A stretch of DNA of 64,000 nt from Escherichia coli (lineage in GTDB: Bacteria; Pseudomonadota; Gammaproteobacteria; Enterobacterales; Enterobacteriaceae). This document shows, one piece after another, positions 52,287 through 53,324 of this stretch (positions within the stretch are counted from its first letter, which is position 1; the number at the start of each line of letters is the position of its first letter). A program made the position numbers and the translations under genes. The notes beneath the pieces were generated by a model. That model made no database searches, was not told where the DNA came from, and worked only from the letters and a program-made list of their open reading frames with translations. The stretch is from the NCBI RefSeq assembly GCF_003334305.1, contig NZ_QOWS01000007.1; one strand, written 5' to 3'.

Positions 52287-53324
52287 TCAGGCTTTATTCT
52301 GACGCCACCATTCACCAAGCAAAACGCCGGTTGCAACAGAGATATTCAGCCCGGCAACGTTGCCCGTACCGTCAATCTTCACGCGCAGATCGTTCGGATC
52401 GCGTGCGGCATCCGGTAACCCTTCATATTCCTGACCCAGCACCAGTACCATTTTCGCTGGCAGACTGGTTTTGAACAGCGGTTTCCCCTGCTCGCTGGAA
52501 GTGGTCACTACGGTGTAACCTGCCTGACGGAAATCATCCAACACGTTAACAATGTTGTCGCCAGTAATCGGCTGAACGTGCTCTGCGCCGCCTTCTGCGG
52601 TACGGATAGCCGCCCCCGACTCCAGCAGTGCCGCATCCTGCACCACAACGCCTTTCACGCCGAAGTGCGCGCAGCTGCGCATCATGCCACCCAGGTTATG
52701 CGGGTTAGATTCGTTTTCCAGCGCCAGTACACAATCCTGCGCGCCTGCCTGGCTTACCCACTGCTGCACGGTTGTGCCATTACGCTTTTTGATCAGGAAG
52801 CAAACGCCGCCGTGATGTTCCGTGCCTGACGCTTTTGTCAATTCCGCTTCATCCACCACATGGTACGCTTTGCGGTTTGCTGCCATCCAGCGCAAGGCTT
52901 CTTTAAAACGCGGCGTTACACTCTGGATAAACCAGGCGCGAACAATCGCTTCCGGACGGCTCTGGAAAAGTGCCTGACATGCATTTTCGCCGTAGACGCG
53001 GGTTTCTTCCGCACGCTGACGACGCAACACTTCCGGATCAATAAAACTTTTACCACTGATGCCACCGTGATCGGCCTTTTCCGGCGTCTCATCACCCGGC
53101 GCGCGGGAAACCGTGCGCCACGGCGAATCTTCCCACTTGCGGTCACGGGGCTGACTCTGTTTGTCATCGCGGGCGGGGCGACGGCCACCGTCAGCACGAG
53201 ATTTTCCTGGACGCCCGCCCCCTTTCCCGGTACGCGGGTTGTGGGTACGTTTATCAGAATCATCATCACTGCGGACATACATCACTTTGACCTTGCCGCT
53301 TTTACCTTTCATTTCATCGTTCAT
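52287..53324 (-). CDS. yfiF: SpoU/TrmH-family RNA 2'-O-methyltransferase with a long basic N-terminal extension
   Basis: 345 aa from [10 protein letters not shown]; N-terminal ~90 residues rich in R/K/G/D, followed by the methyltransferase fold. Confidence 0.8.

Follow-up and report, generated by a model that had tools for sequence, protein, structure and literature searches.

A predicted disordered, net-positive N-terminal tail with three conserved motif blocks in YfiF, a paralog of the rRNA methyltransferase RlmB in Escherichia coli

The window analysed here, a 64-kb stretch of the Escherichia coli chromosome, carries yfiF on its minus strand at positions 52287-53324, where an open reading frame encodes a protein of 345 residues followed by a stop codon. 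RefSeq gives a CDS with identical limits and start and labels it a 'tRNA/rRNA methyltransferase', flanked by ung on one side and by the divergently transcribed trxC on the other. A 1351-nt query spanning the tail-encoding part of yfiF, which is the subject of this report, found its match in every complete E. coli genome (5426 of 5426), the best matches listed being 100% identical. The features on which the analysis draws are given below.

53325-53367, minus strand: 5′ leader, with GGAG at 53331-53334, the palindrome CTGCGCGCTTCGCGCAG at 53342-53358, and the invariant GGTAATCT.
52287-53324, minus strand: yfiF CDS, an open reading frame with the same limits as the RefSeq CDS and a match to NF008117.
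53037-53324, minus strand: N-terminal tail, residues 1-96, delimited by composition, AlphaFold2 (AF2) pLDDT <50, and no Pfam or PDB match.
53205-53297, minus strand: block A, residues 10-40, defined by conservation (0.87), codon-position entropy and dN/dS.
53133-53204, minus strand: variable R/K/D-rich linker, residues 41-64, defined by conservation (0.55), insertions and dN/dS.
53097-53132, minus strand: block B, residues 65-76, defined by conservation (0.87) and invariant columns.
Between blocks B and C: variable segment, residues 77-84, with a mean column conservation of 0.47.
52998-53072, minus strand: block C, residues 85-109, defined by conservation (0.90) and an AF2 helix at residues 97-106.
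52782-52997, minus strand: SpoU_sub_bind (L30e-like RNA-binding) domain, residues 110-181 (Pfam PF08032, E = 1.2e-14).
52317-52730, minus strand: SpoU_methylase (SPOUT catalytic) domain, residues 199-336 (Pfam PF00588, E = 1.6e-31).

A long open reading frame of 200 aa also runs antisense to yfiF on the plus strand (52860-53462), and we read it as a by-product of sense-strand codon composition. Open antisense frames are long in all yfiF orthologs, with a median of 165 codons, so the presence of this one neither supports nor disfavours a gene; codon periodicity tracks the yfiF frame. In distant relatives of YfiF (Pseudoalteromonas, Zophobihabitans and a gammaproteobacterial MAG), no conservation of the gene neighbourhood was found.

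Profile searches place YfiF with confidence in a family of its own. The protein scores 667.6 bits against the NCBIfam equivalog NF008117 / PRK10864, for which the cut-off is 267, and the match runs from residue 1 to 345 of the protein and from position 1 to 344 of the profile. Its scores lie below the cut-offs of both RlmB equivalog models, TIGR00186 and NF008386 (117.8 versus 160.15 and 92 versus 366, respectively), and on these scores YfiF classes as a paralog of RlmB, not as RlmB itself. The original prediction had a methyltransferase fold following the tail; the Pfam layout agrees, with the addition that an L30e-like domain sits between the two. Across 73 homologs, the SPOUT motif residues N207, R241, G245 and N327 never vary, and P208, N210, G212, E248 and the catalytic Arg, R216, are conserved in 90% or more. 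An earlier classification had likewise found that YfiF keeps all of the 2′-O-methyltransferase residues (Tkaczuk et al. 2007, PMC1829167). In an AF2 model the SPOUT domain has pLDDT >90 and the expected alternation of strands and helices, and it is homologous to the knotted structure of RlmB, 1GZ0. By its domains and motif residues, YfiF is predicted to be an RlmB-paralogous 2′-O-methyltransferase of the SpoU/TrmH type.

To follow the 5′ end of the gene through evolution we used an ortholog set of 81 sequences, one per species, built on the best 80 loci of a genome-collection scan and covering Enterobacteriaceae, Erwiniaceae and allied genera, a range suited to the study of selection but not to that of wider taxonomy. 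The annotated ATG is present as M1 in all 81 orthologs, and the GGAG ribosome-binding site upstream of it is conserved as well. M5 is replaced by Leu or Phe in 70 of the 81, and for that reason cannot serve as a conserved start. Every length change between orthologs is in frame, and the frame stays open in 81/81 despite linker indels as long as 46 codons. Past the basic region, start-like codons in frame are limited to a GTG at V99 and a TTG at L100, both of which fall inside a conserved helix. The tail is coded and translated in the annotated frame and is under purifying selection. A true start lying 3′ of the basic region had been named as a finding that would overturn the original prediction, and it is contradicted by the conservation of M1 and GGAG, by codon periodicity and by low dN/dS.

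The peptide first singled out corresponds to residues 1-90 of YfiF and is the exact translation of 53055-53324 on the minus strand. Its richness in R, K, G and D is borne out, with D+G+R+K making up 51% of residues. It had also been called highly basic, a description that is correct in direction and overstated in degree: the net charge is +6 (for residues 1-90 and likewise for 1-96) and the pI is 9.91, compared with 6.67 for the remainder of the protein, but K+R at 24% are set against D+E at 18%, so that the tail is a polyampholyte, and within it an acidic cluster, SDDDSD, is conserved. Hydrophilicity is its most extreme property. The GRAVY value of residues 1-90 is −1.82, versus −0.28 for the rest of YfiF, and when 13,195 sliding windows of 90 aa from 46 non-overlapping ORFs of the same 64 kb were compared, the YfiF tail ranked first in hydrophilicity and had the lowest hydrophobic fraction (0.12). 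Outside yfiF, only about 0.008% of the 90-aa windows reach a GRAVY of −1.5 or lower. A further claim, that the tail is of low complexity, holds in part. Its entropy of 3.71 bits falls at the 1st-5th percentile of 90-aa windows in the 64-kb window, but a tandem repeat search of the E. coli yfiF tail found none, and the tail contains three conserved motif blocks; orthologs do have true repeats. The second most hydrophilic 90-aa stretch in the window belongs to SrmB, which is encoded 3.3 kb away.

Disorder of the tail had been predicted from composition, and AF2 (run as a monomer on a 73-sequence alignment) gave the corresponding picture. pLDDT, which when low is a proxy for disorder only, stays <50 from residue 1 to about residue 93 and exceeds 90 in both domains. 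Confident structure begins with a helix (residues 97-106) running into the L30e-like domain, and in the monomer model the conserved tail blocks are neither folded nor docked on the domains, as would be expected of motifs that fold only on binding. Searches for a known fold or family gave consistent results. Residues 1-109 of YfiF are without a Pfam match, and a PDB sequence search with the full protein matches RlmB-like chains from residue 108 onward only. A profile built from 18 tails returned a single chance-level match in the PDB (E = 0.92) and one sub-threshold match in Pfam, to the Arg-rich RhlB tail family PF12300 (E = 8.6e-3). When the tail alone was searched against 5.8 billion proteins, all named or Pfam-bearing proteins among the matches listed were truncated or frameshifted YfiF, most of the matches were short and unnamed, and attachment of the tail to another type of domain was not found among them. 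The YfiF tail has the traits of disordered basic RNA-capture tails in that it is net positive and hydrophilic and that no fold is predicted for it.

Conservation is distributed along the tail in blocks. Across the 81 species, mean column conservation is 0.87 in block A, 0.55 in the linker, 0.87 in block B and 0.90 in block C; the SPOUT domain region has a value of 0.82, and all three blocks lie at or above it. Block A consists of a short hydrophobic, strand-like motif (KVKVMYVR), an acidic cluster and a Gly/Arg motif. S67, P68 and W69 of block B are invariant across the 18-tail alignment, and the conserved features of the tail include the aromatic residues Y16, W69 and F94 together with Arg/Gly clusters. 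This conservation has the signature of a translated sequence. Entropies at the three codon positions of block A are 0.31, 0.30 and 1.14 bits, and blocks A, B and C all show 1.1-1.4 bits at position 3 versus about 0.3 at positions 1 and 2; the same pattern is seen in the folded domains, where third-position entropy is 1.10-1.32 bits. Values of dN/dS are mostly 0-0.15 in the tail blocks and 0.03-0.15 in the domains. Block A reaches 0.3-0.4 in two pairs and lies at 0-0.30 in pairs within the Enterobacteriaceae. To judge from these substitution statistics, the three blocks are constrained as strongly as the catalytic domains, and the tail would not be described well as uniform low complexity.

The linker between blocks A and B behaves differently. 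Its dN/dS is 0.4-0.87 in all pairs bar one (0.14), and its length ranges from 20 to 70 aa across the 81 species, with the E. coli linker of 24 aa near the short end. Insertions in orthologs cluster after residues 40-59, and growth of the linker takes the form of DNA tandem repeats. In Superficieibacter a (CGTGAC)×8.3 array encodes an (RD) repeat, and in Lelliottia a 15-nt unit is repeated 2.7 times. Despite the range of linker lengths, net charge in the 81 species stays at +2 to +6 for the linker and +3 to +9 for the tail. The insertions are charge-balanced, and a moderate positive charge seems to be kept throughout.

We then asked how widely the tail is distributed among relatives of YfiF. 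At E <= 1e-30, 355 relatives were retrieved from 1.84 billion representatives of clusters at 50% identity. Among the 126 nearest full-length ones, 66 carry 40 aa or more ahead of the L30e-like domain, with lengths reaching 364 aa, and these extended representatives are net positive in 62/66 cases and mostly low in hydrophobic residues. Ten distant representatives, whose tails measure 90-364 aa, score at or above the cut-off of the YfiF equivalog, one of them exactly at it, and none of the ten passes the RlmB models. Many relatives have tails made of R/D/G/P-rich repeats, an example being RPRFERDGERKPRFNDDRRSEG, which is repeated about ten times. One 90%-identity cluster contains proteins of 421, 590 and 617 aa, lengths that would fit rapid change in tail repeat number, provided that the difference is located in the tail. 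Named members of the family come from Enterobacterales, Orbales (Zophobihabitans) and Alteromonadales (Pseudoalteromonas, Corallincola), a spread that agrees with the published duplication of RlmB within Gammaproteobacteria (PMC1829167). The sharp motifs are more narrowly distributed. The KVKVMYVR-type N-terminal motif and the NPRTGKG motif are found in Enterobacterales only, apart from a variant in Orbales (KPTVFY for the N-terminal motif). An [S/T]PW-type motif occurs in 15 of the 66 distant tails, mostly 20-70 residues ahead of the domain. Since basic tails occur throughout the family and the sharp motifs in particular lineages only, charge and disorder are the older property and the motifs are later additions. 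A basic disordered arm sets YfiF apart from its paralog RlmB.

The existence of the tail has been known since 2007, when Tkaczuk et al. described the N-terminal extension of YfiF (PMC1829167) and recognized the protein as a gammaproteobacterial duplicate of RlmB (PMC1829167). More recent work provides a context for its function. A 2024 study combining OOPS and iCLIP showed that YfiF contacts rRNA, tRNA, csrB/C, arrS, chiX and its own mRNA (PMC11066096); the iCLIP experiments used full-length tagged YfiF induced from a plasmid (PMC11066096). Deletion of yfiF slows growth, a defect seen in M9+LB and M9-glycerol and the strongest among eight unannotated, dynamically regulated RNA binders that were tested (PMC11066096). 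Tail truncation and disorder analysis are absent from the 2024 study (PMC11066096), and dissection of the tail is absent from the 2007 paper, the pull-down study and the 2026 study discussed below.

The original prediction knew of no assigned substrate for YfiF, and the literature agrees: no methylation site or substrate is reported in the publications found that mention the protein. RsmI, RlmM and TrmL now account for the four ribose methylations that were orphans in 2007, and the assignment of these sites to other enzymes leaves YfiF without one. In the literature found, YfiF is the sole target-less member of the four E. coli 2′-O-ribose methyltransferases that had been predicted, and were unproven, in 2007.

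What might the tail do? The original suggestion, that it may direct the enzyme to an RNA substrate, is reasonable and partly supported. The reading we favor, to which we give a probability of roughly 0.55, is that the tail captures RNA as a disordered arm and bears short docking motifs. The net-positive arm would raise the on-rate and the dwell time of YfiF on large RNAs or RNPs such as rRNA, pre-ribosomes and tRNA. Capture would be non-specific and electrostatic, a first contact, after which the L30e-like and SPOUT domains would confer specificity. The three short motifs (one led by KVKVMYVR at the N-terminus, one with the invariant Trp, and the helix ahead of the domains) probably become folded when they bind and would contact RNA or a partner protein specifically, while the R/D-rich linker may act as a charge-balanced spacer of adjustable length. 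The direct basis for this model consists of translation, purifying selection, predicted disorder and a conserved net charge, along with the binding of RNA by the whole protein reported in the literature. By analogy with related enzymes, we infer that the tail contributes to RNA binding by YfiF.

Several observations do not sit easily with a capture arm. The charge is only +6 over 96 residues, of which 18% are acidic, and with SDDDSD conserved among them pure electrostatics would be insufficient. That the blocks are as conserved as the catalytic domain points to specific contacts besides charge, and a specific protein partner would account for motifs this well conserved no less readily than RNA would. 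YfiF already has an RNA-binding module in its L30e-like domain, and RlmB functions without a tail.

These points bear on the main rival, which is compatible with RNA capture and which we consider a serious, if clearly less probable, possibility: that the tail is mainly a protein-protein docking module whose motifs bind a partner (for example RNase E or the degradosome, another rRNA-modifying enzyme, or a ribosomal protein present in an assembly intermediate), the charged linker being merely a spacer. Conservation of the blocks at the level of the catalytic domain, next to a charge-rich linker that is free to vary, is what such a module would show. Interaction data point the same way. Physical interactions of YfiF with Rne, Rnr, RluC and PhoL have been reported (PMC11066096); large-scale pull-downs recovered it together with ribosomal proteins and rRNA-modifying enzymes (PMC3384335); and a 2026 study based on cross-linking and SEC-MS lists it with RNase E, DeaD, RhlB, SrmB and RluB, with which it co-fractionates. 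No partner, however, has been mapped to the tail in the literature, and RNA could bridge the co-purifications. The phylogenetic distribution also argues against docking as the main function, as basic tails span the whole family but KVKVMYVR and NPRTGKG do not extend beyond Enterobacterales, except as a variant in Orbales.

A bolder proposal, which we regard as doubtful, reaches beyond the tail. YfiF may not be primarily a stoichiometric rRNA or tRNA methyltransferase. The tail motifs might instead dock it on an RNP, either a late pre-50S particle or an RNase E body, where it would serve as an assembly or chaperone factor or carry out condition-specific, sub-stoichiometric methylation, and the leader hairpin would provide autoregulation through the protein's own mRNA. 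The suggestion stems from the fact that the known ribose methylations of E. coli rRNA and tRNA are all otherwise assigned, yet deletion of yfiF slows growth and the protein contacts regulatory small RNAs along with rRNA and tRNA.

The leader invites a different explanation for conservation at the 5′ end of the gene, namely that it reflects a regulatory element at the RNA or DNA level, for example an autoregulatory site on yfiF mRNA, and that the peptide itself is functionless. YfiF does bind its own mRNA by iCLIP (PMC11066096), and the leader is nearly invariant across the 81 species and their genera and includes a 17-nt GC-rich palindrome with the potential to form a hairpin. Synonymous change is also depressed in block A when E. 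coli is compared with its closest relatives, with a pS of 0.05-0.09 in codons 10-40 versus 0.3-0.7 in the domains. Across the full ortholog set, however, third-position entropy in block A (1.14 bits) is close to that of the domains (1.10-1.32 bits) and positions 1 and 2 are at about 0.3 bits, and all length changes are in frame. Since this substitution pattern is that of protein-coding constraint, we judge the RNA-level explanation unlikely. The hairpin itself gains little from structural analysis. RNAalifold run on the leader returned a 4-bp consensus stem and no compensatory changes, and for want of covariation the hairpin remains a candidate; an Rfam scan of the yfiF gene and leader gave no real match, and a sigma-70 promoter scan gave no site. 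An element may well exist in the leader, but it would lie upstream of the ATG and would leave the amino acid conservation of the tail unexplained.

Still less probable, in our estimation, is that the tail binds DNA or the nucleoid instead of RNA and is linked to the timing of chromosome replication. Deletion of yfiF shifts the timing of replication initiation according to GeZi et al. 2021, as that work is cited in PMC11066096, and basic disordered tails will bind any polyanion. Against this stand the binding of RNA in vivo by OOPS and iCLIP (PMC11066096) and the nature of the folded domains, which form an rRNA-methyltransferase module homologous to RlmB. The morphology phenotype was not reproduced in the 2024 study (PMC11066096), and an effect on replication could follow from a translation defect. 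As for a mis-annotated start, with the real YfiF beginning past the basic region at V99 or L100, we regard it as effectively excluded. In its favor are the two start-like codons, GTG at residue 99 and TTG at residue 100, and the lack of a comparable tail on RlmB; against it stand an M1 and Shine-Dalgarno sequence kept in 81/81 orthologs, the codon periodicity and low dN/dS that mark residues 10-96 as translated, an NF008117 profile that spans residues 1-345, and a frame that remains open in every ortholog despite the linker indels.

Returning to the tail as a proposed disordered arm for the capture of RNA, the present analysis goes beyond the earlier descriptions in proving the start codon, mapping the motifs with statistics on selection, revealing a charge-balanced linker driven by repeats, and tracing the spread of such tails through the family. 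The motif map, with its three strongly constrained blocks and a charge-balanced spacer whose length varies, replaces the loose notion of a basic tail with defined mutants that could be made. Because the tail distinguishes YfiF from RlmB, it is the obvious handle on where the enzyme goes in the cell. It offers a handle on the question of YfiF's substrate and role, not an answer to it.

Comparison with known systems helps to define what is particular to YfiF. RlmB (YjfH), the 2′-O-methyltransferase for Gm2251 of 23S rRNA, is its closest solved structure (PDB 1GZ0). The two proteins share a two-domain core in which an L30e-like SpoU_sub_bind domain is followed by SPOUT, and residues 108-342 of YfiF align to residues 13-251 of RlmB with E = 2.7e-19. 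RlmB differs in having no N-terminal tail, and Gm2251 is made by RlmB, so this site is not one that can be assigned to YfiF. Among eukaryotic enzymes, MRM1/Pet56 and the RNMTL1-type proteins are mitochondrial, and their basic N-termini are therefore most simply import presequences. They belong to the same COGs as YfiF and resemble it in having a basic, presumably disordered N-terminal extension (PMC1829167); no sequence similarity between these extensions and the YfiF tail was found in the tail search or in the PDB and Pfam searches.

Tails of similar character occur on enzymes that remodel RNA. The E. coli DEAD-box helicases RhlB, SrmB and DeaD carry Arg-rich, non-conserved C-terminal tails that, like that of YfiF, are hydrophilic and R/K-rich. 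The tail of one YfiF ortholog weakly matches the RhlB family PF12300, at an E value of 8.6e-3 that is below significance, and the resemblance is compositional only. The YfiF tail differs from the helicase tails in its N-terminal position and in the strongly conserved motifs embedded within it.

The precedent on which the RNA-capture model rests is found in the same superfamily. [quoted passage not shown] In contrast to the YfiF tail they are C-terminal, shorter and partly structured, and they are unrelated to it in sequence. TrmJ is inactive without its basic C-terminal domain (PMC9508554). In TrmH, the basic region is responsible for a non-discriminating initial binding step, after which the catalytic domain discriminates by induced fit (PMC5372735).

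Comparison of orthologous loci across 81 species (E. coli and 80 others from Enterobacteriaceae, Erwiniaceae and allied genera) defined a yfiF 5′ leader that is nearly invariant over many genera. Outside the leader, the yfiF-trxC intergenic region is far less conserved.

53325-53530, yfiF-trxC intergenic region
53325-53367, minus strand, yfiF 5′ leader, TCGGGTAATCTGCGCGCTTCGCGCAGCGCTGGTGGAGAAAAGC
53342-53358, minus strand, perfect 17-nt palindrome, or 7-bp hairpin (CTGCGCG-CTT-CGCGCAG), shortly 5′ of the SD

The palindrome could form a hairpin in the mRNA which, if real, would bear on the reported contact of YfiF with its own mRNA. 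A few genera among the 81 species have an altered loop or a displaced stem, no compensatory pair changes in the hairpin were seen in this comparison, and an Rfam search of the leader returned no match. As an alternative to the mRNA hairpin, the palindrome could serve as an operator, and the leader could also be read as a weak -10 element, TAATCT, with a GC-rich discriminator downstream of it. In Dub-seq overexpression experiments, fragments carrying both yfiF and trxC produced an unexplained joint fitness effect in potassium acetate, which the authors suggested may be caused by the common intergenic region (PMC6338753).

Within the coding sequence, codons 10-40 (~53205-53297) show little synonymous divergence when E. 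coli is compared with its nearest relatives (E. albertii, Citrobacter sedlakii and Citrobacter sp. MGH106): 0.05-0.09, as opposed to 0.3-0.7 in the rest of yfiF. Third-position entropy of the same codons is ordinary over all 81 species. The low divergence may come from biased codon choice at Arg and Gly, from recombination in this region or from an mRNA constraint at the 5′ end.

The basic tail also varies in length. In orthologous genes, in-frame tandem repeats in the DNA of the linker (residues 41-64) enlarge this variable segment, as in two genera:

Lelliottia, locus L017 1676-1715, 15-nt unit repeated 2.7 times
Superficieibacter, locus L037 1684-1733, 6-nt CGTGAC unit repeated 8.3 times, encoding an (RD) repeat

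A more distant, Corallincola-like family cluster contains whole proteins of 421, 590 and 617 aa at identities of at least 90%, and this spread in whole-protein length suggests fast length change driven by slippage. In a few database YfiF variants (P0113, P0044, P0121), the tail enters an alternative frame and then returns.

52916-53278, minus strand, 120-aa alternative frame within yfiF

These frame-switched variants probably arose from mistakes in sequencing or assembly where Gly and Arg codons form G/C runs, and are unlikely to be real isoforms.

Among the 90-aa stretches of the window, the C-terminal tail (residues ~355-444) of SrmB, a 50S-assembly factor, ranks second in hydrophilicity.

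47692-49026, plus strand, srmB, DEAD-box helicase (NF008394, 817.9 bits)

YfiF and SrmB are both RNA-directed enzymes with appended charged tails, encoded ~3.3 kb apart, and one member of this tailed pair is a ribosome-assembly factor.
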